A DNA stretch of 64,000 nt from Dehalococcoidia bacterium (GCA_003142375.1 PLME01000005.1:114582-178581); one strand, 5' to 3'. Positions 11,769 through 43,384 are shown, counted from the first letter of the stretch. Numbers and translations are program-made. The notes: generated by a model not told the origin, from the sequence alone.

Positions 11769-11805
11769 GGTAATAATTCCCTTAACCCTTGAGTTTTGAA
11801 TTAAT

Positions 11806-12552: not shown

Positions 12553-12676
12553 GACCACTGCCTCCATGGAATGATTATGCTTCTTTTTCCTGTTAGAGCA
12601 CAAAACTCGAATTATTTACTTAATTATCAGCGTAGTTGGCTGGTATGGCTTTCCCGGTTAATTATGCTTCCCCAAA

Positions 12677-13831: not shown

Positions 13832-13965
13832 ATAGCGTTAATATTACTACGTGGGAGGATTTAATTGCTAGAAATTCCAAATTCCAAAATACAAACACCA
13901 ATTCTTGTTGTTGCCGGTGGCTAGGGGGAATAGAATTAGAGACAGAAATCAGAAAGCGGAAAGAT

Positions 13966-22990: not shown

Positions 22991-23905
22991 CTAGCGTTCC
23001 AGGATATACTCGTCACCCGCTGAAGCTATAGAAATATTCTTCTTAGCCTGCTTAATGATGACCGGGTCTTGTGTCAGTTCCAGCACCTTCTTAAAATCGG
23101 CTATAGCCAGGTCATTCGTCTTCGAAAGGATATAGAGTATACCCCTGTTCATGTAAGCTTCCGGCATTTTGGGGTCCAGCTCTATTGCCTTGTTGAGGTC
23201 TGCCAGGGCCGCATCGTATTTGTCCATTTCATACAGAGCCCATCCCCTGTTGTTATAGGCAAAGGCCAGCTTCGAGTCAATCGCCAGTGCCCTGTTCAGG
23301 TCGGTAAGCGCCTGGTTCCAATCTCGCATCTTATCCAGGGCCCAGCCCCGGTTGCTGTAGGCATCCGCCAAAGTGGGGTCAAGTTCGACGGCGCGGTTCA
23401 GGGATACGATAGCTGCATCATAGGACTGGTCCAGGATTAAGGTCCTGCCCTGGTTATTATAAGCCTTGGCCAGGTTCTTGTACGCCGTGGAAGAGTTAAA
23501 GCCCAGTTGCAGCGCCATGTTCAGGTCTTCGATCGACTTATCGTAATCGCCGGTGCCGTCATAGGCCCAGCCCCGGTTATTGTAAGCCTCGGCCAGCTTG
23601 GGATCCAGCTGGATGGCCTTGTTCAAGTCATCGATGGCTCCGGTGAAATCCTTCTTATCGATGCGCGTTAGCGCCCGGTTGTTGTAGGCTGTGGCCAGCT
23701 TCTTATTGGCTTCCGGCATATCCGCCTTAAGATCAATGGCCTTCTGGTATTCGGCAATGGCGGTATCCCAGTTGCTTTGCTTGGCATTTGAGTCCCCCAG
23801 CCACATATGATCAGCAGACGAACCCGCGGCACATGCACAAATGGATAAAAGAAATACAGCTAGGAGCACGCTAAACCCAATGCGCATATTACACCTCTTT
23901 CTCAT
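22991..23905 (-). CDS. TPR-repeat lipoprotein
   Basis: Signal peptide with lipobox-like LSICAC. At least six TPR units with the AYNNRG / AYxNRG consensus. Confidence 0.7.
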   Translation of the reverse strand: MRKRCNMRIGFSVLLAVFLLSICACAAGSSADHMWLGDSNAKQSNWDTAIAEYQKAIDLKADMPEANKKLATAYNNRALTRIDKKDFTGAIDDLNKAIQLDPKLAEAYNNRGWAYDGTGDYDKSIEDLNMALQLGFNSSTAYKNLAKAYNNQGRTLILDQSYDAAIVSLNRAVELDPTLADAYSNRGWALDKMRDWNQALTDLNRALAIDSKLAFAYNNRGWALYEMDKYDAALADLNKAIELDPKMPEAYMNRGILYILSKTNDLAIADFKKVLELTQDPVIIKQAKKNISIASAGDEYILER

Positions 23906-24415: not shown

Positions 24416-25258
24416 CTATTCTACCGCGTCAACATAGATATATAGAGGTTCCTTGAAATAAGGTTTTCCCTCGCCGCCTTTATATAGATAAAAATTAATT
24501 TTTTGGGCAGCACCCGCTTTTGCCAGGACAAAATCCACTTTTCCTTCCCACTTTGCTCCATCAGCAAGCGCCCAAGTCGACGTATCGCTAACCACATTTT
24601 CATCTGTGACTGCTCTGATCGAGTAGGCTGTCGTCTGGCTTTCATGGTTTATCACTACTGCCGTGATGGTTACATTGTCACCGGCCTTAATCTGCGTGGG
24701 ATAGTTCTCGGCCTGGCCTTCAGCGTTAAGGATATAGAATTCAGTCGGCGCCGGTTTCTCCGGCAGGGCAACTTCAAAATAGATTAGACTGCCCGCTATG
24801 CCAAATACCGCCAGCAATGCAGCAACCCACACAACCTTCTTTGCCCGCGGCATCCCCTGCCACCCTTCCCAGTGGGGTACCATTGATATGTAGAGGCGCA
24901 TTTCCACCGGCAGCACCAGTTCCCTGATGAATCCGATGATGGCGGCAATCAGTGTAAATGCCGCAACAGACAACAGTATTGGCATCAGCTTAATGCCCCA
25001 GGGTGTGAAATTCAGAAATAAGCCGATGATCGGCACGGCCGCAATGCTCACGCCGAAACTTAAGGCGATGCGCTCGACCATTCCTATATCAACCTGTTTT
25101 GGAAATAAAGCAGATAGCACAGCATACCCGGGGAAGAAGAGCAGGCACAGGAAACTCACGATAATGCGCACCGGGCCGGAGGTGAACAGGGCCAGGGGGA
25201 TTAGCGCTACCGTCAAAATGACTATTGCTGCCAGTATTACGCGGTTGTAGAATCTCAT
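24416..25258 (-). CDS. polytopic membrane protein with beta-rich extracytoplasmic C-domain (DUF1616-like); paralog of 29244..30140
   Basis: Four N-terminal TM helices, then EFYILNAEGQAENYPTQIKAGDNVTITAVVINHE. The second copy at 29244 shares this block (EFYVLGNEGKAENYPRDVKLG...VNHE). The DUF1616 family assignment is tentative. Confidence 0.5.
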   Translation of the reverse strand: MRFYNRVILAAIVILTVALIPLALFTSGPVRIIVSFLCLLFFPGYAVLSALFPKQVDIGMVERIALSFGVSIAAVPIIGLFLNFTPWGIKLMPILLSVAAFTLIAAIIGFIRELVLPVEMRLYISMVPHWEGWQGMPRAKKVVWVAALLAVFGIAGSLIYFEVALPEKPAPTEFYILNAEGQAENYPTQIKAGDNVTITAVVINHESQTTAYSIRAVTDENVVSDTSTWALADGAKWEGKVDFVLAKAGAAQKINFYLYKGGEGKPYFKEPLYIYVDAVE

Positions 25259-25824
25259 TTTACTATTGTAAATACGCCGGTTGTCCCGTTGATATCGACG
25301 GTATAGCTTCCCGGGTCTATTAGCACTACTTTAAAATTCAGATGCATTATGGTATTCGGCAATATGCTTACTTGCCGTATGTTGAACACTTGGCCGTTAA
25401 TCTTTAGTATGACTTGATGCCCGATCTGGCTGCTGTCCAGGTTGGTACCGCTGAACCAGATGTTCACCATCTCTCCCGGTCGTGCCGTCAGCGGCTCGAT
25501 CCTCACATCGCTTATTTTTAAGGGAGTTACCGCTTTTTCTGTGACCGAAACCGGTGTTTTGCCTGCTGATTTTTCTTCGGCGGGTTGAACATCAGGTATC
25601 TTGGCTGGGCTCGGATCCTCCACAGCTACGGCCATGATATCCGCCGGGCTCAACTGGTCTTCAGGCGGTTCCCTATCATTACTATTCCGGATCAGCACGT
25701 ACCCGGCAAACGCCAATGCCGCGATAACAACAATTATGCTGACCGCTGTCAGCGTGGTCTGGGCCCCGGCTTCCATGGCCCCGCACGCTGGCAGCAGCAT
25801 GCTGCATTGATAGAAAAGCGCCAT
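25255..25824 (-). CDS. signal-anchored extracytoplasmic protein (Pro-rich linker plus beta-domain)
   Basis: N-terminal TM anchor, Pro/Glu-rich linker, C-terminal beta-strand-rich domain. ATGA-type overlap with the downstream DUF1616-like gene. Confidence 0.5.
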   Translation of the reverse strand: MALFYQCSMLLPACGAMEAGAQTTLTAVSIIVVIAALAFAGYVLIRNSNDREPPEDQLSPADIMAVAVEDPSPAKIPDVQPAEEKSAGKTPVSVTEKAVTPLKISDVRIEPLTARPGEMVNIWFSGTNLDSSQIGHQVILKINGQVFNIRQVSILPNTIMHLNFKVVLIDPGSYTVDINGTTGVFTIVK

Positions 25825-25959
25825 CTAGCTACCAAAACCTCCCATAAATTTTTACCAGAATATTGCTATTTAGTTATTATTAGTTACTTTAACTTACTTG
25901 ACAAGGAATATCATATATTATAGTCTTAACTTGCAATATTAGGTTGAAGGGATAGGTAT

Positions 25960-26199
25960 ATGGTAACGACGGTAACTATCAGCACAATCACGATCATCGC
26001 CGCCTCCAGTATAGTGGTAGGCATTGGTATATTCGCCACTGTATTGCTAATCGGCTTTCTCTCAACACGGGAATTACTCCACGCTGACGGCGGGGTTAAG
26101 CAGAAGCTGTTGGCTAAGTCGCTACTGGTTGGTATTATCCCGCTATTGATTGGTTTTCTTATCATTGTTGCTCTCAAAGTCGCCGAGATACTAGCTTAG
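25960..26199 (+). CDS. small hydrophobic membrane peptide (79 aa)
   Basis: Track ORF with two or three clear TM helices (ITIIAASSIVVGIGIFATVLLIGFL ... LLVGIIPLLIGFLIIVAL). GGGA-containing RBS. Its 3' end overlaps the CPBP gene. The competing minus-strand ORF 25926..26177 looks like its shadow. Confidence 0.3.
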   Translation: MVTTVTISTITIIAASSIVVGIGIFATVLLIGFLSTRELLHADGGVKQKLLAKSLLVGIIPLLIGFLIIVALKVAEILA

Positions 26200-26985
26200 A
26201 ATAAACGGCGCTATTAAGAATAAAACGACATTGGCAGTGCCGTGTGAAAGGATCGCTCCCAGCAGCGATCCTGTTCTTTTTACCATAGCAGCGAAAAACA
26301 AAGCCACAAAGAATACGAAAACGACGTCGCCCCACGAGTAGAAGCCCAGGTGCAGGACCGCGAAAATCAGGCTGACAAAGATAATCCCCTGCCGTCCCAT
26401 TGCCTTTTCAGACAGCTTCTGCAGGATGCCGCGGAAAATCAGCTCCTCTATCATGCCCGTTGTGATTATTAGCACCAGCGCTGGCAGCCAGATGCTCTGC
26501 AGCGAGAACGTATTTATTAACGGACTCGTACCGATAATAAGATACTCTACTAATCCTAATGCGGCGCCGCTGATAATGCCCCCGATGATCTGCAACGGCC
26601 AGTAGCGTAGGGTGAGGCCGACCTGGGCGGGCTTAAGGCCTGTCACCAGCATTACAACTATGGCAGCCGCTAACAAAGGAGTATAAATTATGGGAAACCT
26701 GAAGACCAGCGAGAGTTGTCCCAGGGGTAAAGCGATGCTCATGATACGTACCAGGGGCACCAGGCTCAGCGCCAATACCAGGTTTCTTTTCCCCGGATCC
26801 GATATGAAAACGGACTGAACGATAAATGCTGTGAGAATTAAACTATAGCCGATCACGCCGGCCAGCGGGTAAAGATAAACTGTCAATACCTCTGCCGCAG
26901 TAATGGCAACCAGGTATATCCAGAAAGGCCATGCTATAGCTTTAGATGAAGTCGATTCTATGGCTTTCACTTCACATTGATCCAT
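26191..26985 (-). CDS. CPBP family intramembrane metalloprotease (CAAX protease / Abi)
   Basis: All three CPBP motifs: EELIFRG (EExxxR), FAVLH (FxxxH) and HGTAN (HxxxN). 6-8 TM helices. Confidence 0.75.
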   Translation of the reverse strand: MDQCEVKAIESTSSKAIAWPFWIYLVAITAAEVLTVYLYPLAGVIGYSLILTAFIVQSVFISDPGKRNLVLALSLVPLVRIMSIALPLGQLSLVFRFPIIYTPLLAAAIVVMLVTGLKPAQVGLTLRYWPLQIIGGIISGAALGLVEYLIIGTSPLINTFSLQSIWLPALVLIITTGMIEELIFRGILQKLSEKAMGRQGIIFVSLIFAVLHLGFYSWGDVVFVFFVALFFAAMVKRTGSLLGAILSHGTANVVLFLIAPFILS

Positions 26986-27200
26986 AAACGAAGCGATAGA
27001 TAGGGGGTAACCTGCCCGGTTTTGTAACGGTTAAAATCTTGTTCAGCAAATTTGATTTTCCTTTGTCATAGAATTAGCGAATATCATAGCAAAATAGAAC
27101 TGAAAAATATAGAAGGACGTGTAGATTTATGCATCGGCATTAATTGATACTATCAACTGCCGGTTGCCCGTGATAGAATTATCTGCAATTCACACACAGG

Positions 27201-29138
27201 GTGGCGGGCTATATGTATAGGGTATTCGGCCTCTTACTGATATTGGCGCTGGCCTTCTATCTGGCCTTCATCCCCCATATCGGCTATGCCTATCCGCTTC
27301 ATGGGGACGAGTGGATGCATATGACCTATGCTGAAACCATTGCCGGGACCGGCTCCATTACCTTTCCCGACCCCTTTACGGGCTTGACCGACATTAAATT
27401 GGGAGGCAACCTCTGGGTGGGCTATCATATCCTCTGGTCCATCTTCCAGCAGGTCAGCGGCATAGACTGGATAATTCTTTTCAGGTACTTTCCCTCCATC
27501 ATATTCATGCTTACCGTCCTGGCTGTCTATATCTTAGCCGCCAGGCAGGGCTACGGGTTGGAAGCTGCCTTCTTTACCTGCCTCATACCCACTACAGGCG
27601 GTCTGCTCGGCCCCGCCTTCATGGTTCCCATGGCTCTGGCCATGCTCTTCATACCGCTGTCGCTATTTCTCGCCTTCAATATAAAGAAGTGGCCTTCCTA
27701 CCCGCTGATATTTCTCTTTACCGGTTTCCTTTTGATATCCCACGCTACAACTGCCATCGCCCTCTGTATCATTCTGGCTCCCTATATCCTGTTAAATATC
27801 AAGGGGAATATCCGCCACGCAGCGGGAGTGTTGGCCGCCCTTGTTCTGCCCTTTGCCCTGTCATTGCCCTGGACTTTCCAGATAGCGGTTCAGACCGCCC
27901 GGCAATTGTTAGTACCGCAGTATTTCTCCCCTTTCATTGAGCTGCCTGACCTATTATTAGAGTATGGCTTATTGCCTATCGCCTTCAGCTTCATCGGTAC
28001 CGTCATATTAGTAATGAAGGGCGGCAAGAAAAACCTTGGTTTGGTGTCCGGGCTGGCTTTATTGCTCATCATAATGCTCGTATTTATCAGGTTCCATTAC
28101 GGTTTGTCCACGGTATATGAGCGTGGCCTGACAGCCATGCTGTTGATTTTAAGCATCCTTGCCGGCGCGGGATTATTCCGGCTGAGAAAGCTTAAGCTGC
28201 CCGCCAATTTTCTGGACAGACATAAATCCATTCTTCTCAGAAATAGCACTAATATAAGCTGTGTGTCTCTGGTTGTATTAATCCTCGCCGTTGCTATCCC
28301 AACCCGCCTCAATGCTGTCTTTTACCATATGATTGACGACGAAGACTACCGGGCATTTACCTGGATTAACGATCATGTTGGAACGGACTACAGTTCAGCA
28401 CTGGTAGATCCGTGGAAAGCCACGGCTTTCTCTGCCATCACCGGTAAAAAAGTCCTTCATAGGATATGGCCCAAGCAGGACCCGATTGACGATAGGATTT
28501 ACAGTTACCTGAAGGGTGGATGTCAGGACCCGGTTTTTCTGAGGGACAACAAGGTGTCCTTTATCTATAACCTGTTGCCATGCGATAATCGCGATTTGAT
28601 TGAAGTAAGTGACCGGGTATTTGTAACAAATCCAAATATATATGTTACTTTTGCAGCAAATGATCAGTTACAGAATGCCGGCTTCGAGGCCGTTTACGGA
28701 AATCCGCCTGCACACTGGGGGAAATGGTCACAGAATTGCAAACCCACTTTCCTGTATCCCGAACCGGGCCGGATCGGAGGGTCATCTGTCGCTATACAAA
28801 TGATGGAACTTGAACCATTTACGCCGTGGCCGCAAGCGATATGGCTTCAGAACATCCCGGTTCAGTCCGGTAAATCCTATACAGTTGGGGGCTGGATTAA
28901 AAGTGAAAATATTGAGGGAAAAGGCGGTGCAATGATTGTGCCTCAATGGAAAGGACCGGGGAATAAATGGATTAGTCAAACCGCGTTTATGCCATATCTG
29001 AAAGGGGCAACTGGCTGGACTTATTACCAGGGTAATGTCACCGCTCCGCCGGGAGCAACTATCTGCACAGTATGTTGCTTTATGGCTGGCTGTTCAGGTA
29101 CAGCCTGGTATGACGATATCTCATTCAAAGAGAAATAA
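27201..29138 (+). CDS. GT-C-like polytopic membrane glycosyltransferase with C-terminal carbohydrate-binding-like beta-sandwich domain
   Basis: About 11 TM helices with an acidic motif in the first extracytoplasmic loop (LHGDEWMH). The ~300-aa soluble C-domain ends with a CBM4/9-like segment (GGWIKSENIEGKGGAMIVPQW ... TAWYDDISF). No WWDYG motif, so it is not an AglB/PglB-type oligosaccharyltransferase. Confidence 0.4.
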   Translation: MAGYMYRVFGLLLILALAFYLAFIPHIGYAYPLHGDEWMHMTYAETIAGTGSITFPDPFTGLTDIKLGGNLWVGYHILWSIFQQVSGIDWIILFRYFPSIIFMLTVLAVYILAARQGYGLEAAFFTCLIPTTGGLLGPAFMVPMALAMLFIPLSLFLAFNIKKWPSYPLIFLFTGFLLISHATTAIALCIILAPYILLNIKGNIRHAAGVLAALVLPFALSLPWTFQIAVQTARQLLVPQYFSPFIELPDLLLEYGLLPIAFSFIGTVILVMKGGKKNLGLVSGLALLLIIMLVFIRFHYGLSTVYERGLTAMLLILSILAGAGLFRLRKLKLPANFLDRHKSILLRNSTNISCVSLVVLILAVAIPTRLNAVFYHMIDDEDYRAFTWINDHVGTDYSSALVDPWKATAFSAITGKKVLHRIWPKQDPIDDRIYSYLKGGCQDPVFLRDNKVSFIYNLLPCDNRDLIEVSDRVFVTNPNIYVTFAANDQLQNAGFEAVYGNPPAHWGKWSQNCKPTFLYPEPGRIGGSSVAIQMMELEPFTPWPQAIWLQNIPVQSGKSYTVGGWIKSENIEGKGGAMIVPQWKGPGNKWISQTAFMPYLKGATGWTYYQGNVTAPPGATICTVCCFMAGCSGTAWYDDISFKEK

Positions 29139-29243
29139 ATTAAAGAAGATCATTTTGGGAGGATACATCGGGATGACAACGTAAGTATATCTTTAGATTG
29201 TCATTAGATTTAAGGTATACTTTATAGGTAATTCAATGATTTC

Positions 29244-30140
29244 TTGAGGGGCTATTTTTTGAATTCACGGTTCAATATCGATCTGGCTCTGGTCTTGATC
29301 TTATCATTTATTCTAATTTTAATAATTCTTTTTATCCCGATTGATGCAATCAGGATCATTCTAGGGCTGCCGTTCATACTGTTTTTTCCGGGCTATACAC
29401 TGGTCGCCGCATTATTTCCCGGAAAATCCGGCTTACAGAGCGTAGAAAGGCTGGCACTGAGCATCGGTTTAAGTCTGGCTATAATGCCGCTTATCGGCCT
29501 GATCCTTAACTGCACGCCATGGGGTATAAGGCTCCACCCCATACTAATTTCCCTTACCGTCTTTATCATGGCGATGTGCACAATTGCTTTTTTACGGCGA
29601 AACCGTTTATCCGATGATGATAAATACGACTTCGGCTCTATGCTAACCATCCGCAAAGCCGGAGCAAAAGAAGTTCCTGCCACAGACGGCATGCCCTCCC
29701 TTAAAAAGAAAAAATGGATGGATAGACTGCTTAATATTGTACTGGCACTGGCCGCCGTTGTCTGTATTTGCACCATTGTTTATGCGATCGTAACACCGAA
29801 AACAGGCGAGAAATTTTCCGAGTTCTATGTACTGGGAAACGAAGGCAAGGCGGAGAATTATCCGCGTGATGTTAAACTGGGGTCTCCAATATTGCTTACT
29901 ATAGGTATTGTGAACCATGAACAGGCGGAAACTGTGTATACCGGTAAAGTGACTATTGACGGGGTCAATAATATTGCCTTACCCACGATAACGCTGGCTC
30001 CAGAGCAAAACCAGGAGCAGGTTATTTCGTTCACCCCCACCAAAGTGGGCCAGAGTCAGAAAGTGGAGTTTTTACTATTTAAGAATGCGGAGACAGAACC
30101 GTATTTAACGCTTCATATCTGGGTGAATGTGAGAAAGTAG
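29244..30140 (+). CDS. DUF1616-like polytopic membrane protein (paralog of 24416..25258)
   Basis: TTG start. N-terminus MRGYFLNSRF parallels MRFYNRVIL of the paralog. Shared FFPGY, GL.LNFTPWGI and EFY.L..EG.AENYP blocks. Confidence 0.5.
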   Translation: MRGYFLNSRFNIDLALVLILSFILILIILFIPIDAIRIILGLPFILFFPGYTLVAALFPGKSGLQSVERLALSIGLSLAIMPLIGLILNCTPWGIRLHPILISLTVFIMAMCTIAFLRRNRLSDDDKYDFGSMLTIRKAGAKEVPATDGMPSLKKKKWMDRLLNIVLALAAVVCICTIVYAIVTPKTGEKFSEFYVLGNEGKAENYPRDVKLGSPILLTIGIVNHEQAETVYTGKVTIDGVNNIALPTITLAPEQNQEQVISFTPTKVGQSQKVEFLLFKNAETEPYLTLHIWVNVRK

Positions 30141-30219
30141 AACTAGATACGTACCTAATTTTGTTTGACATCAATAGTAATCAACTGGCATGTGCCGGTA
30201 ATAGGGTAGCGGTTTAAAG

Positions 30220-31509
30220 ATGAACAGTCCGGGAGGTATCAATTTAATAGCGTATCTCCGCGATCCCTTAAGAAACAATGCTCTCTTTTTTATGGCTGCC
30301 AATGCCAGCAATAATCTGATAGGATTTTTCTTCTGGACGTTGGCAGCAAGATTATATACCGTTGAAGATATCGGCAAAGCAACAGCATTAATCTCAGCCG
30401 CTAATTTATTAATTCTCTTCGCGGGCCTGGGCATGGGCATTGGAGTTATTCGCTTTCTATCGGAAGAAAAAAATAAAACCGCCTTAATTAATACTGCCTT
30501 CACAATATCCGAAGTCACTGCACTGATATTATCCTTAATTTTTATCCTGGGCATTGGGGTATGGTCACCAGCTTTAGCTTTTATTTATGATAATTATCTG
30601 CTTATAGCGCTGTTCATCATATTTGCCGTATTTAGTGTTATCCAATCATTACTGTCATTTACCTTTGTTGCCTTTGGTGCCGCTAGATATTCATTTTATC
30701 AGAGCCTGATCGTAGGTATAAAAGTGATCATCCTGATTTTCCTTATACATCTGGGGATAACGGGCGTTTTTGCTTCGTTCGCATTAGGACCTATAATCGC
30801 TGTTATCGTAACTTATATCATTTTTCTGCCGGCAGTATATCCGGGATATAAATTCATCCCTTCTTTTAACGGAACAATTCTCGATACTATAGTGCATTTT
30901 TCCTTGGGTAATTACTTCGGTGAGTGTTTTAAATCATTAACAGGCGTACTTGTGCCGCTCATTATTATTAATCTGCTGGGCGCTGAAACAAACGCCTATT
31001 TTTACGTAGCCTGGATGATTTCTGGGATCTTCTTCATGGTTTCCTATTCCATCAATTATTCATTGATAGCGGCCACAGCGCCTCATCCTGAAGAGCTCCG
31101 CAAGCAAATTGTTAAGGCGTTGAAATTTGCTTTACTGATTCTGATACCGGCAATCATAGTCGTCTATTTTGCAGGCGGATTTATCCTGTCATTATTCGGA
31201 AAAGAATATGCACAGGGAGGGCTGGACCTCTTACACATACTGATTGTTTCCAGCATACCGGTGGCTGTGAATGAAATTTACGTCGCCGTTTACCGCATTA
31301 GAAAGCAGATAAAACCAATTATTCTAATATATGGCTTTATAGCGCTATTTTCTATTGGTGCAGGATATATACTTCTTAAAATACTGGGATTAACAGGAAT
31401 TGGTATAGCCTGGCTGTCAGCTCATTGCATTATGATGATGATCCTTTTTGGAATTAATCTAAAATATATTCGGTCAACTACTAATGTGAGTAATCCCCCC
31501 AATAAGTAA
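30220..31509 (+). CDS. MOP-superfamily polysaccharide flippase (Wzx-like)
   Basis: 429 aa with about 12-14 TM helices. N-terminal pattern of 'polysaccharide biosynthesis protein' flippases. Low-GC gene. Confidence 0.6.
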   Translation: MNSPGGINLIAYLRDPLRNNALFFMAANASNNLIGFFFWTLAARLYTVEDIGKATALISAANLLILFAGLGMGIGVIRFLSEEKNKTALINTAFTISEVTALILSLIFILGIGVWSPALAFIYDNYLLIALFIIFAVFSVIQSLLSFTFVAFGAARYSFYQSLIVGIKVIILIFLIHLGITGVFASFALGPIIAVIVTYIIFLPAVYPGYKFIPSFNGTILDTIVHFSLGNYFGECFKSLTGVLVPLIIINLLGAETNAYFYVAWMISGIFFMVSYSINYSLIAATAPHPEELRKQIVKALKFALLILIPAIIVVYFAGGFILSLFGKEYAQGGLDLLHILIVSSIPVAVNEIYVAVYRIRKQIKPIILIYGFIALFSIGAGYILLKILGLTGIGIAWLSAHCIMMMILFGINLKYIRSTTNVSNPPNK

Positions 31510-31604
31510 AAGTAATGGTCTTTATCCCAATCTTGATAAATGGACCAATAATCCTCATATCACCTACTAAAAGCCTCCCCTTTTCTTACCAACCGTAGTG
31601 CTAG

Positions 31605-31694
31605 TTTTGCAGATCATCTTATCGTATTGGGCCGCGCGGTGGCCGCTTTTCCCGGGATGACGTGCTCATCTTCCTCAGCGATACTCTAAAATAG
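31605..31694 (+). pseudogene. 3' remnant of an excisionase-family HTH gene (paralogous to 43117..43326)
   Basis: Hand translation gives ...SYRIGPRGGRFSRDDVLIFLSDTLK*. The intact copy reads SYRIGPRGDRRFSKDDVLIFLSHTQ. There is an in-frame stop upstream and no start. Confidence 0.55.
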
Positions 31695-31736
31695 CCCGAA
31701 GTCAAAATTTGATCTATACGCCTTGTTAATACAAAA

Positions 31737-31770
31737 CTCCGCCAGGGCTTGGCAGGCTTCGCTGGCGGAG
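31737..31770. repeat. inverted repeat CTCCGCCAG-N16-CTGGCGGAG, copy 1 (leader element)
   Basis: Perfect 9-bp arms with a 16-nt loop GGCTTGGCAGGCTTCG, followed by GGGAGAAAACCCGTG. Near-identical to copies at 32007..32040 and 43351..43384. Confidence 0.55.
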
Positions 31771-31857
31771 TCTGGCACAGGGAGAAAACCCGTGCTTGTC
31801 GGCTATTCTAACAAAGCTTCAGTGACAACTCAATCAATATCGTTCATATCTCATCAA

Positions 31858-31920
31858 TTCATAGTACTTTTGTACTAGTCAGCTAATAGTACTTTGTGAC
31901 CAGTAGTACTTTTAGACCAT
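31858..31920. promoter_or_regulatory. cluster of AGTACT-centred iterons upstream of the beta-helix gene
   Basis: TAGTACTTTTGTACTAG ... TAGTACTTTGTG ... TAGTACTTTTAG. Three TAGTACTTT units 22-25 bp apart, the first palindromic. No credible ORF here. Confidence 0.35.
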
Positions 31921-32006
31921 AGAAAAGGGACTAATGGGCTATTATCTTTAGCTTCAACGCAGCGTATATTGATTACAGTCCGATAAATACAGGGCGAATA
32001 ACGAAA

Positions 32007-32040
32007 CTCCGCCAGGGCTTGGCAGGCTTCGCTGACGGAG
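32007..32040. repeat. inverted repeat CTCCGCCAG-N16-CTGACGGAG, copy 2, immediately 5' of the 32062 start codon
   Basis: Same element with one arm mismatch. Followed by GGGGAGAAGAACC-ATG (RBS plus start of the beta-helix gene). Confidence 0.55.
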
Positions 32041-32061
32041 TTTAGCACGGGGAGAAGAACC

Positions 32062-33300
32062 ATGCTACGTTTACATGGAATTATCCGGCGTCAGACCGCT
32101 GCACGCAAACAGCTGCACGTTATTAATAAGTCCCTGCTATTCTGTTTTCTTTTAATGGCTTGCTTGAGTACTATTTGCAGTGTAGCATTGCCACCCGTCG
32201 CTCTTGCATCTAATATAGATGGCAAATTTTATTTGCCTGAAAATCTATTCTCAGATACCGCAACATATTTCATAGCAGCCTCAGATGCTACAGCAACAGA
32301 AAAGGCACAGGCTGATGTTGTATGTGATGGAAAGGCAGACCAGGTTGAAATTAATGCAGCTATTATAGCAGGACACAATCATATCGTACTATCAAGTGGT
32401 ACTTTTGCAATTGGTGCACAGATTGTTTTGGCAAGTAACATATGGCTTCAAGGGCAAGGTGCTGGAACTATTATAAAAATTGGTGGCGATTATTCTGGCA
32501 TAAAAGTCATAGGTTGTACATACTTTACTCTATCTGATTTTGAAGTAGATGGAGATAATAAAAACACGGGTCTTGGAAGTCATTCTATTTATATCCGTAC
32601 GGGATGTTCTCATTTCACAGTTAGAGATTTACGAGTAGTAAACTCCCATTCCTTTTCACTTATGTTTGACGATGATTGTAGTTATGGCGTAGTTGATAAT
32701 ATTTATTGTTTAAGTTCCAATGAAGCATATCACGATGGAGTACATCTTAATGGTTGTAGCAATATGACAGTAAGTAATATTTATGGTTCAACTGGTGATG
32801 ACTTATTGTGTATTGGGTCCAAAACAGTAGCCACCTCTCATATAACAGCAACAAATATTTCAGGAGTTTCTGGTATGGCGCATCTATGCAGAATATATAT
32901 TGCAGAGCATGCTTCTGCAGGGGCGGCTGTATCAGATATTACTGTTAGCAACATATCCGGCACTGCTAAGAGATTATTGATTATTAACAGCGACACCAAC
33001 GGAACTATCAGTAGAGTTTCTGTTAATAATATTAGTGGGGTTGGAACTGCTAATGGAATCCGTGCTGATACGACCGCTGGCGGGACTATTTCCGACATTA
33101 ATATTGATGGTTTTAGTGTTAGTGGCTCCAGTACCTATGGAGTATTTATTAATGGCGTAACCAGGGGGGCATTGACAAATGGCTCAATTCTAAATTGCTC
33201 TGACCATTCTCTACTTCTAAGAGCCAATACAGCCTTCAAATGCGATAACATCAATATTAAAACAGAGGTTGCAAGCCGGTCAGGTGTGGCGGTAGATTGA
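32062..33300 (+). CDS. secreted right-handed parallel beta-helix protein (pectate-lyase superfamily)
   Basis: Signal anchor. Repeated beta-helix rungs (IVLSSGTFAIGAQIVL, IYIRTGCSHFTVRDLRV, VSNIYGSTGDD, VSNISGTA..., VNNISGVG...) typical of the pectate_lyase_3 / tailspike-like fold. Confidence 0.6.
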   Translation: MLRLHGIIRRQTAARKQLHVINKSLLFCFLLMACLSTICSVALPPVALASNIDGKFYLPENLFSDTATYFIAASDATATEKAQADVVCDGKADQVEINAAIIAGHNHIVLSSGTFAIGAQIVLASNIWLQGQGAGTIIKIGGDYSGIKVIGCTYFTLSDFEVDGDNKNTGLGSHSIYIRTGCSHFTVRDLRVVNSHSFSLMFDDDCSYGVVDNIYCLSSNEAYHDGVHLNGCSNMTVSNIYGSTGDDLLCIGSKTVATSHITATNISGVSGMAHLCRIYIAEHASAGAAVSDITVSNISGTAKRLLIINSDTNGTISRVSVNNISGVGTANGIRADTTAGGTISDINIDGFSVSGSSTYGVFINGVTRGALTNGSILNCSDHSLLLRANTAFKCDNINIKTEVASRSGVAVD

Positions 33301-33331
33301 CCCCACCCCCGTAATTTAATCAATAATAACT

Positions 33332-35083
33332 TCATTTATTCTCTAAATAATACAATTTTTCATGATTGTTATCATATATATTGGCAAATGAAATTTGATT
33401 ATCAATATTTAATATTAGAGAACTATTTGGGATGTTGGACAACCCGCCCCATTTAATATATAACTTATATTCTGTATTCAATTGAGATAACGCAATATAG
33501 TTGCAAATAGCATAATCCATGTTTTCCGTTCTCAAATTATCAATATCTTTGGGTGATTGAGATTTGAATAATTCTTCTATCTGATTTCCCCACAATCCCA
33601 TTCTATTGCCAAAAGCAGTAATGCTTTCAGTCATCTGAGTATCGGCTAAATAACCAGTATTATTATTTGTTTTATCATTTATCCACATAGAAAAAGTTTT
33701 TAAAGAAATCGGTGTTTCTTCTGGAATTAATCCTTTGGTATATATTTGTGGTGCAAAAGCAGTTAGTGGTCCTAATATTAATGTGATAATACAAAACCCC
33801 ATTATGATTGTTTTACTATACTTAAACCGATAAGTATAGAAACTATGCATGATCATAAATGCAGCGGATATTGATAAGGGAAAAACTAAGTAATCAATGA
33901 TTCGAAAACCTTCTACTGAAATCCCACCAGGCCCACCAAGTGGAACAATAAACGCCACCCCAATCAATAAAAAAATAAAAAATGACCAGATTGTCGTAAT
34001 TTGCATTAGTCTATTGTCTTCCATTTTGTAAAATTTATGCTTTACACTTTTTAAAATTGAATACATAATGCCTGAGATTCCCAATAACGCAATAGAAAAA
34101 TATTGTATTAAACGTCCAATGGCTAAATAGGATGGGAAAAATGTTTCACTGGCATGAGAAGGCCAGGATAATTTAGAAATAAACCCATTTTCCATAACAT
34201 TCTTTAATTGAACAATAAAGGCCTTTATATTATGTGCAATAAATCCCGGAACAGTTATGTATATCCACCATGAAACCAGTGACACTGACCATAGAATTAT
34301 TGTTGTTACAGGGATTTTTGTCTTTGTTTTGTTTAGATAATCAAATAGGACAATAATTATAATCGTAAACAAAAATACTACCGAATCTAATTGATGAGAA
34401 ACAATTGATAGCACTATTGAAATGAATAGGATAATTGTCATAGAAATGCTGTTTGTATTTATTCTCTTAAATATAATAAATAAAGCCATAAAAAAGCCTA
34501 AACGAGATAATTCTTGTACTATTACATGTGTTCTATTTAGTATTGACACCACTATAAGTGCATAAAATAGTAAAGATAATAATGAAATATTACTTTTATT
34601 TGTAATTGTTAAGACAAATAAATATAGGAATAATGATACCATTATGCCAATAGTAACGGTCAGCAAATAATATTCTACAGGCATGTTGAAAGGCATAATA
34701 ATATATACGAACGCCAATAAAATATGAGCTCCCGGCCACGATGAAAACACCTGGTGAGGTATTAAAGGTAAATCCTTTGCGATATAACCATTTTCAATTA
34801 TATAATCTGCATATAAAACATGATGATAGTTAAATCCCCATGGTAAGTTAGTGAGCAATAATGGCAAAATCGAAGGAATGATGATTACTATTAGGCAGCT
34901 TATTAAGTTAGTGGATTTATTAGTATCATGAAAAATATTAAACACTAAAATGGAGAGTGCCGCACCATAAAAAATGAAAAAAATTAATGAAAATAGGGGA
35001 TTATAGTTAATTAATAAAAGTGCCGTAATAGCACATAAAATATTAATATAAAATATTTTGTAAAAATATTTAGGATTATTCAT
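33332..35083 (-). CDS. strongly AT-rich polytopic membrane protein, putative glycan polymerase / GT-C-like
   Basis: 583 aa with about 14 TM helices and a soluble ~150-aa C-terminus. No recognisable motifs. Its composition stands out from the surrounding genes. Confidence 0.4.
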   Translation of the reverse strand: MNNPKYFYKIFYINILCAITALLLINYNPLFSLIFFIFYGAALSILVFNIFHDTNKSTNLISCLIVIIIPSILPLLLTNLPWGFNYHHVLYADYIIENGYIAKDLPLIPHQVFSSWPGAHILLAFVYIIMPFNMPVEYYLLTVTIGIMVSLFLYLFVLTITNKSNISLLSLLFYALIVVSILNRTHVIVQELSRLGFFMALFIIFKRINTNSISMTIILFISIVLSIVSHQLDSVVFLFTIIIIVLFDYLNKTKTKIPVTTIILWSVSLVSWWIYITVPGFIAHNIKAFIVQLKNVMENGFISKLSWPSHASETFFPSYLAIGRLIQYFSIALLGISGIMYSILKSVKHKFYKMEDNRLMQITTIWSFFIFLLIGVAFIVPLGGPGGISVEGFRIIDYLVFPLSISAAFMIMHSFYTYRFKYSKTIIMGFCIITLILGPLTAFAPQIYTKGLIPEETPISLKTFSMWINDKTNNNTGYLADTQMTESITAFGNRMGLWGNQIEELFKSQSPKDIDNLRTENMDYAICNYIALSQLNTEYKLYIKWGGLSNIPNSSLILNIDNQISFANIYDNNHEKLYYLENK

Positions 35084-35213
35084 GTACTATACTATGACCT
35101 GGTTATCATTATGAGGAACATAGGCAAAAACCAAAGTTTCATATCAGCTATCTTACCACCATCTCGTAAATATTCTCTACCTTTTTTGCCATGTTTTCCC
35201 GTGAATACTTGAG

Positions 35214-36740
35214 CTAATGTTCTGGATTAAAAATGCTCTTCCCATCGAATAGAAAGTCGCCGTGTACGTTAAGCAGGTCAAGTACGGTTGGGGCGATGTC
35301 CATTAATGTTATATTAAATTGGGAGAAATTTTCTGAACCCGGATAGGATATTAGAAATACCGGGGAATCTGAGCGGTGCGATCCCGGATGTATTTCATGC
35401 GTTCCGGATTTTCCCATGATTGGGCAGTGTATGGACCATCCTATTCCATATCCCTCCTGCAACTCAAAAACAATGTCAGGGTACCGATTAATGAACTCGC
35501 CCTGATACAGCTCTTCGCGTCGGCAGATCCACTTCATTATATTGATACCAGAAGTTGGCTCCCTAATTATGGAAAGCCTGTCAATAATTGCGCTCCGCAG
35601 CTCTTCGTAGCTATTCCTCTTTTTGGCATCACCGCTTATTTCAATGCCCCCGTACGAGTAAGCTTTTATGCCGGAAAGGTCGGAAACACAGGCTATAGTC
35701 TTATCCCAGTCAACCCCTGATGGTGCGGCATAGATTTTCCTGGCCCAGGGGAATAACCTAAGTAATCGGGCAGCTATTACCTCAACACCATGCACAGAGA
35801 TAAGACGGTCAGCCGCTCTTTTGGCCATCTCAGTGAATCTACTTAAATTGCTCTGATGGTTTTGTCCGCCTTTAGATACCAGATATCCTTCTTTCCTAAG
35901 GATCTCATTAATGTTGACAAGGTTGACAGGGCGCATACCGTGTCCGTGGTCACTGAAAATAATTACCGTTGATCCAGAATTAACGGCGGACAGAAGCTCT
36001 CCTATCTTTTTGTCATAAAGGACGTAAAAGTCTTTTATCACATCTTTAAAAGGAGTACCTGCCACATGTGTGGGATCTTTATCATCATGGTGGGACCAGA
36101 AGCAGTGTTGAATAGAATCAAGAACCGAGGAGTACATAAAGAACAGGTCCCAGTCATCCTTTCTCAGCATCTCAATCCCAAATGAGAATTCGTTAGAGAG
36201 AAGATTCTTGCATTTAGCAATAATCTTATATAGTGCGGATGCTTTTAGCGATGAAATCTCTTGGATCATGTTCAATCCGCTTAAGTCCTTATCTTTGCCA
36301 ATTTGCGATGGGTATGCCGCCGGTGCACAATTTGCGCCGAGGTGGCGCATGGATCTGGATACCATCACTCCGTTGACAGGCCAGGGGGGGTAGACTGCCA
36401 GAGGAAAAAGTACACATACTTTCTTTTGATGCTGGCTGAGGTAATCCCAGAAACAAGTGCCCTGGAGTCTTCCCCGAATGGAATTTTCCGAATCATCAAG
36501 GGCTGTGACAAAGCTCTTATTATCCAGCGGACTTCTAAAATATACAATGCCTGTAGACGCAGGGCTTTTTCCTGTATAAATGGATGCCCATGCCACGGGT
36601 GAATCAGGTGGGAAAACTGATTGCATGTGTATTTTAGGTGCATTTTTCATAAGTTCTCTTAGATTCGGGAGTTCGCTTTCGAACTTTGACAGAAGGATGG
36701 AATCAAGGGCGTCAATGCCAATCATTACGACTTTGTTCAC
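35214..36740 (-). CDS. alkaline-phosphatase-superfamily protein (type I phosphodiesterase / nucleotide pyrophosphatase-like)
   Basis: N-terminus VVMIGIDALD (metal-binding Asp pair) and later HG.. / DHGHGM segments fit the AlkP-core fold. GTG start abuts the upstream stop. Confidence 0.5.
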   Translation of the reverse strand: MNKVVMIGIDALDSILLSKFESELPNLRELMKNAPKIHMQSVFPPDSPVAWASIYTGKSPASTGIVYFRSPLDNKSFVTALDDSENSIRGRLQGTCFWDYLSQHQKKVCVLFPLAVYPPWPVNGVMVSRSMRHLGANCAPAAYPSQIGKDKDLSGLNMIQEISSLKASALYKIIAKCKNLLSNEFSFGIEMLRKDDWDLFFMYSSVLDSIQHCFWSHHDDKDPTHVAGTPFKDVIKDFYVLYDKKIGELLSAVNSGSTVIIFSDHGHGMRPVNLVNINEILRKEGYLVSKGGQNHQSNLSRFTEMAKRAADRLISVHGVEVIAARLLRLFPWARKIYAAPSGVDWDKTIACVSDLSGIKAYSYGGIEISGDAKKRNSYEELRSAIIDRLSIIREPTSGINIMKWICRREELYQGEFINRYPDIVFELQEGYGIGWSIHCPIMGKSGTHEIHPGSHRSDSPVFLISYPGSENFSQFNITLMDIAPTVLDLLNVHGDFLFDGKSIFNPEH

Positions 36741-37418
36741 TTATGAAATCTCCCTTACGGCGCTCCAAATAGTTGACTGCAAGGCAGGCAGCGTATTGGT
36801 ACCGTCAATTATGGTAAAACCGTATTGCTTTGCCAAACTTAGATATAACTCTCTCCGTTCGCTTAGGTGAGTTATAGAAGGTATGTCGTCCTTGCGTTTT
36901 ATAGCCACCTCCTCCGGTGCATCTATAAGTAACACCAAAGATGGTTTAGGGAGCAACCGCTCAAAAGCCCTGAGCATGTAGCTCATTTTTCTCTCTGTGT
37001 AGGAAAGAACAACCGCCAAATCAATAAGTACATCGTAAACGTAACGGTCACTCACGACGCTCGCTCCCCGCATCATTGGGATGCGAACATTCAACAGAAG
37101 TTGGATAGCATAATCGAGACAAAAAATAGATTCGTACACGGTTCTCATTAATGGATTACGCAGCACCTTTCTTAGCGTCGTGGAATAACGCATGTAGGTT
37201 CCCGGCGTTGGCTCATGACGGGGGATGAATAATGCCTTCCCTACCCAGAAAAATGGCTTAAGTATCATTGGTTCAAGCCCGCTCCATACATACTTCGTCT
37301 TAATGCCATGCTCATTCATATTTTCAACCAGTTTTTTGGAAAGCGTCGATTTACCGGTTCCATCCATTCCAACAAGGCATACCAGAATTCCCTTCTGTCT
37401 GCTGTTTGTTACCATCAT
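36741..37418 (-). CDS. P-loop kinase-like protein (thymidylate-kinase-like fold)
   Basis: Walker A VCLVGMDGTGKST near the N-terminus. About 225 aa. Substrate unknown. Confidence 0.4.
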   Translation of the reverse strand: MMVTNSRQKGILVCLVGMDGTGKSTLSKKLVENMNEHGIKTKYVWSGLEPMILKPFFWVGKALFIPRHEPTPGTYMRYSTTLRKVLRNPLMRTVYESIFCLDYAIQLLLNVRIPMMRGASVVSDRYVYDVLIDLAVVLSYTERKMSYMLRAFERLLPKPSLVLLIDAPEEVAIKRKDDIPSITHLSERRELYLSLAKQYGFTIIDGTNTLPALQSTIWSAVREIS

Positions 37419-38404
37419 TTCCTTAATAATTCACTATATACATGGTTCAGCTCGACGGCGATGTTTTTCCATGAATACGGCAATACTTTTTCTCGAGTTT
37501 TAATCTGCGTTCCGGCTTTCACCTTCGCCAGCAGGCCGATGAAATCCTCTCCATTCTCGGCGTACCAGAGACCATTTCCTTCGGGGAATATTCGCGGAAG
37601 TGCCCCATATCGGGTGCACAGGACAGTCAAATTGCACGACATAGCTTCCATAACTGAAAGTGGCGTCTCAATGCTGCCCAGCTTGTCGATGGTGGGAAAA
37701 ACATAGCAGTCGGCCAGGGCATAAAGCTCCTCAATGTTTTCAAAGTATTTCCTCCAGACAAGACACCCGCCAGCAACCAGCTTCTGATGCACTTCGTTTT
37801 CCTCACCGCTTGTTACACCGCCGACTATTATGGTTTGGACATCAGGGTCTCGATTTAAGTCATTGAGTATCGTCACATTTCTATTCATTTTGATATGGCC
37901 AATACACAGGACAATGAACTTCTGCCCGGGTAGATCATATTTATTTCTTAATGCTTGCTTTTTATCACCCGTCACAGGGGTAAACTTTTCGATATCAACA
38001 CCGGGGGGCAGGAATTTGACCCGGCAGCCGTAATTCACGAACAGCCTCTCTGATTCATAAGATTGAGTCAACACCATGTCAGGCTTGAAAAGCGGTATTA
38101 GCCTCCTTGATAAACTGGAAAATATCGGTTGTGTAGTAGATGCTACAGTCCTGGCACCGGTGAAAAACCTGACCATCTTTAATAGGGCTAGGCTTTTGAT
38201 GGTTGGCCCGGGTATAACATGGATGATGTCAGGATGAAATCTTCTTATCCCTTGCCAGAAGTCCGATAGCGGTAAAACAGACGGGGAGATCTTCAGGTGC
38301 AGGACATCATGTTGTTCGGCCAATTGGCGACAGAGGTGAAAAGCGATGTTGCCCATCCCTTCGTCAAGGCGATCACTGTAGGGGCTCAGCAAACAAATCC
38401 TCAT
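37415..38404 (-). CDS. GT-B fold glycosyltransferase (GT4-like)
   Basis: N-terminal Rossmann half-domain and C-terminal GGV.SGEENE-like donor-binding region. Overlaps the neighbouring gene by 4 nt. Confidence 0.5.
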   Translation of the reverse strand: MRICLLSPYSDRLDEGMGNIAFHLCRQLAEQHDVLHLKISPSVLPLSDFWQGIRRFHPDIIHVIPGPTIKSLALLKMVRFFTGARTVASTTQPIFSSLSRRLIPLFKPDMVLTQSYESERLFVNYGCRVKFLPPGVDIEKFTPVTGDKKQALRNKYDLPGQKFIVLCIGHIKMNRNVTILNDLNRDPDVQTIIVGGVTSGEENEVHQKLVAGGCLVWRKYFENIEELYALADCYVFPTIDKLGSIETPLSVMEAMSCNLTVLCTRYGALPRIFPEGNGLWYAENGEDFIGLLAKVKAGTQIKTREKVLPYSWKNIAVELNHVYSELLRK

Positions 38405-38409
38405 ATCAG

Positions 38410-40709: not shown

Positions 40710-40764
40710 TAGTTTTTCCCCTAGTCTAGGTTAATACTTGATGGCTCTGAAATTGACGATATAT

Positions 40765-41550: not shown

Positions 41551-41576
41551 GCATTATACAAATATATTAGGTTGTA

Positions 41577-43326: not shown

Positions 43327-43350
43327 TCTATAAGTCTCGATAATATAAAA

Positions 43351-43384
43351 CTCCGCCATGGCTTGGCAGGCTTCGCTGGCGGAG
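43351..43384. repeat. inverted repeat CTCCGCCAT-N16-CTGGCGGAG, copy 3, directly 3' of the excisionase-family gene
   Basis: About 125 bp (43330..43470) align with 31715..31850, including the loop, GGGAGAAAACCCGTG and ATTCTAACAAAGCTTCA. Confidence 0.55.

Follow-up and report, generated by a model that had tools for sequence, protein, structure and literature searches.

To what process do the membrane proteins encoded at positions 24416 to 30140 of a 64,000-nucleotide stretch of DNA from a Dehalococcoidia bacterium (GCA_003142375.1, PLME01000005.1:114582-178581; hereafter, the window) contribute? The original prediction had described five membrane-protein open reading frames (ORFs) on two strands, all of which are present in the ORF list of the window, and had read them as a module for protein glycosylation and surface processing. 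In our analysis, the 645-residue product of one of these ORFs is predicted with high confidence to be a glycosyltransferase of the GT-C(A) fold, from a family without a model recognized by CAZy or Pfam, and its membrane partner is likely a DUF1616 protein. The GT-C enzyme, DUF1616, a membrane protease, and an adjoining cluster for sugar-chain synthesis most likely form an undescribed cell-surface glycosylation system with an archaeal flavour. The functional statements made below rest on predicted structure and gene linkage. The five genes, and a sixth that is a conserved neighbour of the module, are the following.

22991-23905, minus strand: TPR lipoprotein-like protein, 304 aa, conserved module neighbour (six TPR_1 repeats, Pfam 2e-51)
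24416-25258, minus strand: DUF1616 paralog a, 280 aa (Pfam DUF1616, 1.2e-59)
25255-25824, minus strand: membrane-anchored CARDB-like beta-domain protein, 189 aa (homology via phmmer)
26191-26985, minus strand: CPBP (Rce1-like) glutamic intramembrane protease, 264 aa (Pfam Rce1-like, 4e-18)
27201-29138, plus strand: GT-C-fold glycosyltransferase of an unclassified family, 645 aa (predicted structure)
29244-30140, plus strand: DUF1616 paralog b, 298 aa (Pfam DUF1616, 1.6e-80)

The AlphaFold2 model of the 645-residue protein (pLDDT 87.8, pTM 0.76) contains approximately 11 transmembrane (TM) helices, a long first external loop holding two helices (residues 35-50 and 73-86), a small extracytoplasmic alpha/beta domain (residues 375-480), and a C-terminal beta-sandwich (residues ~500-645). 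Comparison of the membrane part with the PDB by Foldseek retrieved GT-C enzymes exclusively (STT3, PglB, AglB, AftD, AftA, ALG12, and DPY19), with E-values of 2.5e-9 to 4e-5 and TM-scores of 0.40 to 0.51. The top matches were yeast and human STT3 (2.5e-9, TM-score of 0.51); AftD was found at 4.7e-8. The acidic motif LHGDEWMH occupies residues 33-40, right after the first TM helix (residues 2-26). Alignment of 44 homologs showed that H34, E37, and W38 are invariant, with conservation of at least 90% for D36 and H40. Residues H181 and R308 are also invariant, as is the P404-W405 pair in the extracytoplasmic domain. The protein thereby displays the features of the GT-C(A) class, namely a superposable TM core and conserved acidic residues opening a long two-helix first loop, and D36-E37 corresponds to the loop-1 Asp-Glu motif of the PMT family (GT39). 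The C-terminal domain resembles CBM16, CBM4, and CBM61 in fold (Foldseek, target TM-scores of 0.6 to 0.75). The matching Pfam family, CBM_4_9, was detected at residues 488-624 under its cutoff (0.0016, 19.2 bits for a cutoff of 25.9), and a profile search of PDB chains returned a weak match to the CBM70 structure 4d0q (0.0042). The GT-C-like fold, the first-loop motif, and the C-terminal CBM-like domain had all been anticipated in the original prediction and are borne out; the fold is nearest to STT3, PglB, and AglB.

Apart from the sub-threshold CBM_4_9 match, Pfam and NCBIfam contained no sequence family for this protein. It did not match STT3 (PF02516) at E-values up to 0.1, a regular-expression search did not find the WWDYG motif, and Pfam detected neither a PMT or PMT_2 profile nor a MIR domain. 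PMT structures were absent from the top 50 Foldseek matches, and sequence and profile searches of PDB chains retrieved no GT-C enzyme. Within the claimed resemblance to the AglB, ArnT, and PMT classes, the fold is closest to STT3 and AglB, but the protein is not a member of STT3/AglB. With the oligosaccharyltransferases STT3, AglB, and PglB (GT66, GT-C(A)), the protein shares its best structural matches, an acidic residue opening the long two-helix first external loop, and the succession of a TM domain and C-terminal extracytoplasmic alpha/beta and beta domains; it differs from them by having approximately 11 TM helices rather than 13, in addition to the lack of a profile match and of WWDYG.

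A search with the GT-C profile identified 6126 relatives among 1.84 billion representative sequences, 307 of them below 1e-30. The nearest homologs, up to 89% identical, originate from Dehalococcoidia metagenome-assembled genomes (MAGs). The core common to the family comprises approximately 480 residues; one clade has a CBM in addition, in place of which Laminin_G_3 and PKD domains are found in other members. Loci from species-representative genomes (n = 80) belong nearly all to Dehalococcoidia or Chloroflexota. The family is under-sampled because the genome scan relied on two peptide patterns, and the loci of relatives are mostly MAG contigs, some of them short. Linkage was counted by profile search in the ORFs of 83 fetched loci (designated by L numbers), from which L002, a duplicate of L001, was dropped, leaving 82 loci; 50 of these have at least 1 kb on either side of the GT-C gene and are referred to as well flanked.

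Three observations concern the distribution of the family. The contig of L006, which harbors a GT-C gene 75% identical to the window protein, was binned as a Nitrososphaeria archaeon, probably by mis-binning. Loci L080 and L083 (GT-C approximately 32% identical) were binned as Deltaproteobacteria and may reflect horizontal transfer. The complete Chloroflexota chromosome OY970123.1 carries at least three GT-C paralogs within 45 kb (L009; L012:10010-11935 and 12385-14106), which suggests that a single organism has several specificities for acceptor or linkage.

Which of the neighbouring genes belongs functionally with the GT-C gene? Both DUF1616 paralogs are clear members of PF07760 (202.4 bits for a and 271 for b, for a gathering threshold of 31.6), as the original prediction had proposed from their likeness. 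They are 38% identical to each other (4e-50) and have in common the stretch EFY.L..EG.AENYP...NHE. DUF1616b is transcribed in the same direction as the GT-C gene, 105 bp downstream. Among the 82 loci, 43 contain a DUF1616 ORF at most 300 bp from the GT-C gene; in the well-flanked subset, DUF1616 is adjacent in 27 loci of 50 and present somewhere in the locus in 36. By size, the adjacent genes form two classes, encoding short proteins of 112-192 residues, limited to the four-TM part, or full-length proteins of 265-346 residues. In three loci (L076, L078, and L082), DUF1616 and the GT-C enzyme are fused as a single ORF. An N-terminal extension of 75-160 residues is present in 28 of the 150 best GT-C representatives, and 7 of these 28 extensions match the N-terminal part of DUF1616 in Pfam (best match, 2.3e-31). 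Aligned extensions share the DUF1616 signature PG..LF..ER..N..G. Fusion also fits the topology, since four additional TM helices do not alter that of the GT-C enzyme. With 50.5 bits over profile positions 2-499, the fused L076 protein exceeds the gathering threshold of DUF6541 (PF20176; 29 bits); DUF6541 is therefore the fused form of DUF1616 and the GT-C enzyme. In Pfam searches, the window GT-C protein did not match DUF6541, and DUF1616b scored 20.4 bits, under the same threshold. Fusion and adjacency provide strong evidence for a physical and functional DUF1616/GT-C pair, within which the actual role of DUF1616 can be proposed from its gene context. Co-occurrence of the families beyond this genome had been part of the original prediction. 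It holds for the DUF1616/GT-C core pair, but not for the five families as a unit, since the CPBP protease, the CARDB anchor, and the TPR protein recur in only a subset of approximately 10-11 loci. The original prediction thereby withstood both refutation tests attached to it, one on the GT-C fold and one on co-occurrence.

In DUF1616a, a four-TM bundle is followed by a linker, a fifth TM helix, and an extracytoplasmic Ig/CARDB-like domain. The AlphaFold model of DUF1616b (pLDDT 78.9) comprises TM helices 1-4 (residues 12-119), a basic disordered linker, a fifth TM helix (residues 153-183), and a beta-sandwich (residues 193-297) that matches CARDB and macroglobulin domains in fold. Neither structure nor sequence searches of the PDB found a relative of the TM bundle. 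We also considered the four-TM bundle as a GtrA-like flippase, a role with which its size, its topology, and its proximity to GT-C and GT2 genes would fit. This candidate was ranked low, as the bundle has no similarity to GtrA, a flippase of the MOP/MATE type is already encoded alongside, and fusion to the GT-C enzyme better suits a structural subunit. Pfam describes DUF1616 as an archaeal family. Neither DUF1616 nor DUF6541 has an assigned function; we found no description in the literature of a function for either family, or of this gene combination, and no mention of DUF6541 or DUF2206. DUF1616 came up in a single paper, in which a Haloferax DUF1616 protein is listed as an AglB-dependent N-glycoprotein (PMC8241124).

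If the 645-residue protein is a GT-C enzyme, what could be its donor? The genes located downstream from DUF1616b form the following cluster.

30220-31509, plus strand: MOP-superfamily flippase, 429 aa (MatE, 30.4 bits, above the gathering score)
32062-33300, plus strand: secreted beta-helix (GH28-like) protein, 412 aa (Glyco_hydro_28, 2e-5, 24.3 bits; N-terminal signal-like segment)
33332-35083, minus strand: orphan polytopic membrane protein, 583 aa, in the GC trough
35214-37418, minus strand: type I phosphodiesterase-like protein, 508 aa, and P-loop thymidylate-kinase-like protein, 225 aa (Phosphodiest, 8e-35; Thymidylate_kin, 6e-11)
37415-40709, minus strand: three GT4 (GT-B) cytoplasmic glycosyltransferases (Glycos_transf_1, 4e-12, 9e-45, and 1e-41)
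40765-41550, minus strand: GT2 of the polyprenyl-phosphate sugar synthase type (Dpm1/AglJ/PpgS/ArnC-like), 261 aa (NCBIfam)
41577-45715, minus strand: UDP-glucose/GDP-mannose dehydrogenase and two NAD-dependent epimerase/dehydratases (Pfam)

The GT2, for which a Dpm1/ArnC-like identity had been predicted, indeed found its best NCBIfam models among Dol-P-hexose transferases (2.4e-32), AglJ (8e-32), PpgS (2e-27), and ArnC (1e-14), all under the equivalog cutoffs. A GT2 of the AglJ/Dol-P-hexose/PpgS/ArnC type is located approximately 0-4 kb from the GT-C gene in 13 other loci, often with a gap of 9-250 bp. The other GT2s of those 13 loci served as a control; because they match different subfamilies, such as MftF and rhamnosyltransferase, the AglJ-type assignment discriminates. 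On the basis of this linkage, we infer that the donor of the 645-residue protein is a polyprenyl-phosphate sugar. The MOP flippase gene begins 80 bp after DUF1616b, and its product scored 24.2 bits with Polysacc_synt, under the Pfam gathering score. A homolog follows the GT-C gene in L011, and a Polysacc_synt gene lies near the pair in L084. The combination of a Dpm1-type GT2, a flippase, and a GT-C enzyme defines the three-component extracytoplasmic glycosylation systems, and MATE flippases fill the donor-flipping role in a characterized system of this type (PMC11127046). No GtrA/SMR-type flippase was found among the window genes that were scanned or annotated, which do not include every small ORF. 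The ORFs of at least 150 residues in the window include no family of initiating phosphoglycosyl-transferases, which fits initiation on polyprenyl monophosphate.

Two relatives show a further association at the GT2 position. In L057, a 712-residue fusion of a B12-binding radical-SAM domain and an AglJ-like GT2 (4517-6652) is encoded 249 bp downstream of the GT-C gene, and in L056 a radical-SAM protein alone (10691-12136) occupies the equivalent position. This association is a hint that the lipid-linked sugar donor may be modified, for instance by methylation. In the window, the spacer that separates the flippase gene from the beta-helix gene contains two copies, 270 bp apart, of an identical 17-nt hairpin (CTGCCAAGCCCTGGCGG; 31739-31755 and 32009-32025, minus strand).

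The cluster itself differs from the module in its conservation. The GC content falls from approximately 0.50 to a low of 0.36 (0.36-0.46 over window positions 30000-44000), and in the relative with a 75%-identical GT-C protein (L001/L007) the glycan cassette is entirely different and the module is conserved. The low-GC stretch resembles an exchangeable glycan cassette, with the conserved module at its border. Its 583-residue orphan has no Pfam or NCBIfam match, and a search of 5.8 billion proteins yielded just 7 homologs, none of them less than 76% identical; such a pattern is typical of a serotype-specific Wzy-like polymerase, for which the orphan is a candidate.

To which acceptor would the sugar be transferred? 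In seven Dehalococcoidales MAG loci, ORFs of the AglB/STT3 type adjoin short-form members of the GT-C family.

L039:1518-4040, AglB/STT3 ORF
L058:7483-9915, AglB/STT3 ORF
L060:1386-3818, AglB/STT3 ORF
L064:2-2101, AglB/STT3 ORF
L067:6218-8557, AglB/STT3 ORF
L028:6530-7654, AglB/STT3 ORF
L043:3883-5502, AglB/STT3 ORF

These neighbours match STT3 in Pfam (L060, 7e-26; L064, 2e-18) and an AglB_core-like model (5e-19), and six of the seven contain WWDYG. Three of the genes are on the strand of the GT-C gene and only 4-32 bp away from it. An AglJ-like GT2 is encoded within a few kb in at least five of the seven loci. The archaeal-style character suggested by the original prediction gains support from these loci; we found no description in the literature of AglB-type N-glycosylation genes in Dehalococcoidia. 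The 645-residue protein was considered as an N-oligosaccharyltransferase in its own right, and this candidate was downgraded, as the protein lacks WWDYG and genuine AglB genes adjoin members of its family. Because it belongs to a family found beside real AglB genes in relatives, the enzyme is more likely an accessory transferase using a lipid-phosphate sugar (AglS-, Gtr-, or PMT-like) than an oligosaccharyltransferase. The window additionally encodes large surface proteins.

47219-51052, plus strand: candidate acceptor, 1277-aa surface protein that combines a signal peptide with a C-terminal TM anchor (one Asp-box; Ig_Rha78A_N, 1.3e-5)
54904-59678, minus strand: candidate acceptors, 1075-aa BNR/Asp-box surface protein (54904-58131) with a C-terminal TM anchor, and 526-aa CARDB protein

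The 1075-residue protein contains five Asp-boxes and has a weak Sortilin-Vps10 match in Pfam, and the 526-residue protein matches CARDB (1.8e-8). The designation of both giants as BNR proteins is correct for the 1075-residue protein, but the 1277-residue protein has only one Asp-box. In Dehalococcoides mccartyi, the protein annotated as S-layer protein is of the BNR/Asp-box type (PMC6646388). The two giants share a C-terminal layout in which a YFW.V...FSFTT domain end precedes a linker rich in Pro or Asn, a single TM helix, and a tail containing RR; this layout resembles the anchors of archaeal S-layer glycoproteins or a sorting signal.

Taken together, we favour, with a probability of about one half, a model in which a complex of the GT-C enzyme and DUF1616 uses a flipped polyprenyl-phosphate sugar to modify surface (S-layer) glycoconjugates without being the oligosaccharyltransferase itself. 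The extracytoplasmic GT-C(A) enzyme would be complexed in the membrane with DUF1616, the four-TM bundle of which would pack on it with the Ig/CARDB-like ectodomain facing outward. At the cytoplasmic face, the AglJ/Dpm1-type GT2 (40765-41550) would load a sugar on polyprenyl phosphate. A flippase, for which the MOP protein (30220-31509) is the candidate, would carry the lipid-linked donor across the membrane, and the GT-C enzyme would then transfer the sugar, via Asp36 and Glu37 of loop 1, to a cell-surface glycoconjugate. The most likely acceptor would be the glycan carried by S-layer-type glycoproteins of the BNR/CARDB kind, which are anchored by their C-termini; the CBM-like domain would hold this glycan. 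The glycan of surface glycoproteins is given this place because of the AglB neighbours, the adjacent surface-protein genes, and the CBM-like domain of the long form. The low-GC cassette, with its GT4s, sugar-nucleotide enzymes, and orphan polytopic protein, would supply a strain-specific main glycan.

Several observations weigh against this model. TM-scores to solved GT-C structures are only approximately 0.4-0.5, with large root-mean-square deviations, and the searches of Pfam, NCBIfam, and the PDB provided no sequence-level link between the 645-residue protein and any characterized GT-C enzyme. A CBM-like fold is no proof of glycan binding. DUF1616 is not found in 14 of the 50 well-flanked loci, and 23 of the 50 lack an adjacent copy. 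The window GT2 is 11.6 kb from the GT-C gene, inside a cassette that possibly needs a GT2 for its own chain, and the MOP flippase may be the Wzx of the main glycan rather than the flippase of a monosaccharide donor. There is no AglB within the window, and the CPBP protease and CARDB anchor recur in only approximately 10-11 loci.

The foremost alternative, which we consider unlikely, is that the GT-C enzyme acts as a terminal transferase, analogous to an oligosaccharyltransferase or a ligase. The AglJ-like GT2 and the GT4s would then build a whole oligosaccharide on polyprenyl phosphate, the MOP protein would flip it, and the GT-C enzyme would move it en bloc to surface proteins. The nearest folds are indeed catalytic subunits of oligosaccharyltransferases, the order of TM, alpha/beta, and beta domains parallels that of AglB, and conservation of the GT-C protein at 75% identity beside a wholly different cassette in L001/L007 is the pattern expected for a glycan-tolerant transferase. 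The window also holds neither AglB nor an initiating phosphoglycosyl-transferase. However, the missing WWDYG motif and STT3 profile match do not favour such a function, the real AglB encoded beside the GT-C enzyme in seven loci implies that the two are not redundant there, and in minimal loci the enzyme is tightly paired with a single GT2 of the Dpm1 type, which speaks for a monosaccharide donor. Next in order, and also improbable in our judgement, a PMT/TMTC-like O-glycosyltransferase would transfer a single sugar from the polyprenyl-phosphate donor directly to Ser or Thr residues of surface proteins presented by the TPR lipoprotein and the DUF1616 ectodomain. The Asp-Glu pair of loop 1 is positioned as the 'DE' motif of PMTs, as established for that family, a GT2 partner of the Ppm1/Dpm1 type exists, and surface-protein genes adjoin the GT-C gene; the conserved TPR neighbour recalls TMTC enzymes, in which TPR repeats are fused to a GT-C domain. 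The absence of PMT structures from the leading Foldseek matches and of PMT, PMT_2, and MIR profiles nevertheless speaks against this function, and the CBM-like domain points to a carbohydrate acceptor.

Placed lower again is a scheme without protein glycosylation, in which a Wzx/Wzy-type route encoded by the locus yields a polysaccharide that is either free or linked to the wall (exopolysaccharide or secondary cell-wall polymer); the GT-C enzyme would add side-chain sugars to this polymer or polymerize it, as do the Gtr, Aft, and Emb enzymes. The low-GC cassette offers a flippase, GT4s, an orphan Wzy-like polytopic protein, and a beta-helix depolymerase-like protein, and GT-C enzymes with CBM-like domains such as AftD, one of the fold matches, act on polysaccharides. 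Emb enzymes are further CBM-bearing GT-C enzymes acting on polysaccharides. Yet no initiating phosphoglycosyl-transferase, chain-length, or export protein was found in the window, linkage to AglB and surface-protein genes in relatives points to glycoproteins, and Dehalococcoides, as is established for the genus rather than for this organism, lacks peptidoglycan as an anchor for a wall polymer. Finally, the genes could be mere neighbours, the CPBP protease and the 189-residue protein being unrelated to glycosylation and DUF1616 being an unrelated membrane protein. Homologs of the former two in only approximately 10-13 of the 82 loci and the rearrangement of gene order between loci would fit. 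We regard this possibility as very improbable, since DUF1616 is found fused to the GT-C enzyme, since the two genes are adjacent in 43 of the 82 loci, and since the CPBP, CARDB, DUF1616, and GT-C genes stay together despite rearrangement (L022, L048, and L088; in L041, the CPBP gene is approximately 5 kb off).

The model of a GT-C/DUF1616 complex acting on surface glycoconjugates has partial counterparts among known systems. Like the GtrA/B/C, ArnC/ArnT, Citrobacter ORF15/ORF14/ORF12 (GT136), and Haloferax AglD/AglR/AglS systems, the locus co-encodes a Dpm1-type GT2, a flippase (here of the MOP/MATE type), and a GT-C enzyme. It departs from these three-component systems by its linked and sometimes fused DUF1616 partner, which occurs in no described system, by a GT-C enzyme outside the families recognized by CAZy or Pfam, and by the lack of a GtrA/SMR-type flippase among annotated genes. 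The proposed working mode would be similar to that of AglD/AglR/AglS, by comparison with established knowledge of the Haloferax pathway, or to that of the GtrA/B/C systems. With PMT and TMTC enzymes (GT39/GT105), the likeness resides in the loop-1 Asp-Glu pair, the Dpm1-type donor synthase, and the associated TPR protein, but the TPR protein of the window is a separate lipoprotein and not a fusion, in addition to the differences in profile match and MIR domain. The AftD and Emb arabinosyltransferases also combine a GT-C core with C-terminal CBM-like domains (AftD, 4.7e-8), but they are far larger than the window protein and share no sequence similarity with it, and the organism offers no arabinogalactan context. 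Unlike STT3, AglB, and PglB, its family coexists beside genuine AglB genes in relatives.

What is new here is a fourth, tightly coupled DUF1616 component in a GT-C system whose anatomy fits the three-component type, with a link to archaeal-type AglB glycosylation in Dehalococcoidia. DUF1616 and DUF6541 gain a testable role as partner or fused domain of a glycosyltransferase using lipid-linked sugars, and DUF1616 has thousands of members in Dehalococcoidia. The GT-C family, which is recognized by no current sequence model, could found a new CAZy family. Cultured Dehalococcoidia lack peptidoglycan and possess an S-layer. Since the family is tied to genuine AglB-type enzymes, the long-suspected archaeal-like envelope biology of Dehalococcoidia becomes directly testable. 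GT-C enzymes with relaxed glycan specificity would also be of interest for glyco-engineering. A bolder version of the model appears doubtful to us: DUF1616 would be an obligatory subunit of the new GT-C family, with DUF6541 as its fused form, in a pathway for N-glycoproteins, archaeal in type and linked to AglB, by which the Dehalococcoidia S-layer is built and in which a dedicated CPBP protease matures the anchored glycoproteins. If true, this would be a glycosylation-plus-sorting system without a described counterpart in Bacteria.

The remaining genes of the module are probably lineage-restricted accessories; the CPBP protease, the 189-residue CARDB anchor, and the TPR lipoprotein would handle or mature anchored surface proteins. 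The CPBP protein had been announced as a protease with a full set of motifs, and it contains all three, EExxxR, FxxxH, and HxxxN/D (EELIFR180, FAVLH208, and HGTAN248), with an Rce1-like (PF02517) score of 65.9 bits for a cutoff of 22.4. It shares these catalytic motifs with the CPBP proteases that include the myxosortases MrtX, MrtJ, and MrtS, and its best NCBIfam models are of the myxosortase type (MrtJ, MrtS, and Mrt_core; 45, 41, and 39 bits), but the scores are far under the cutoffs of 75, 130, and 100 bits, and the protein does not qualify as a myxosortase. Reading of the termini of nearby surface proteins revealed no shared C-terminal sorting motif beyond a TM segment and a basic tail. 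The CPBP protease may mature anchored proteins, and this role is the weakest link of the model because no sorting motif was found. CPBP homologs are present in 10 scanned loci and in L088.

The 189-residue protein consists of an N-terminal TM helix, a Pro/Glu-rich linker, and a beta domain, in agreement with the signal-anchored beta-domain protein of the original prediction. It has no Pfam, NCBIfam, or PDB match. In related loci, it is homologous to proteins of 425-710 residues (phmmer, 1e-17 to 3e-6), and the homolog in L022 is a CARDB-repeat protein (Pfam CARDB, 8.5e-20); its beta domain is CARDB-like because of this phmmer link to a clear CARDB-repeat protein. Counting direct phmmer matches only, homologs are found in 13 loci. 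Large CARDB-repeat proteins are encoded directly downstream of the GT-C gene in five loci (L022, L029, L041, L048, and L079), and the GT-C/DUF1616/CPBP/CARDB quartet is kept, despite changes in gene order, down to 47-52% GT-C identity (L022, L048, and L088). The ATG of DUF1616a overlaps the stop codon of the 189-residue ORF (ATGA), which suggests translational coupling. The TPR protein starts with a signal sequence containing a Cys residue, and its homologs are found beside the module in at least six loci (L007, L008, L009, L017, L022, and L089). Its gene is preceded by a perfect sigma-70 consensus (TTGACA, 17 nt, TG-TATAAT; 24344-24316, minus strand).

Two other observations concern more distant genes of the window. 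A protein with an ICMT/PEMT-like methyltransferase domain is encoded at 13747-14667 (plus strand), 12 kb from the CPBP gene. In eukaryotes, the ICMT and Rce1 families act together in CAAX processing; the proximity seen here is probably a coincidence. Genes for URO-D and DUF169 proteins are located near the module, at 10782-12603, and in two distant loci (L003:8272-9420 and L084:7823-8539) they are immediate neighbours of the DUF1616/GT-C pair, which may reflect conserved backbone synteny or an unexplained association.

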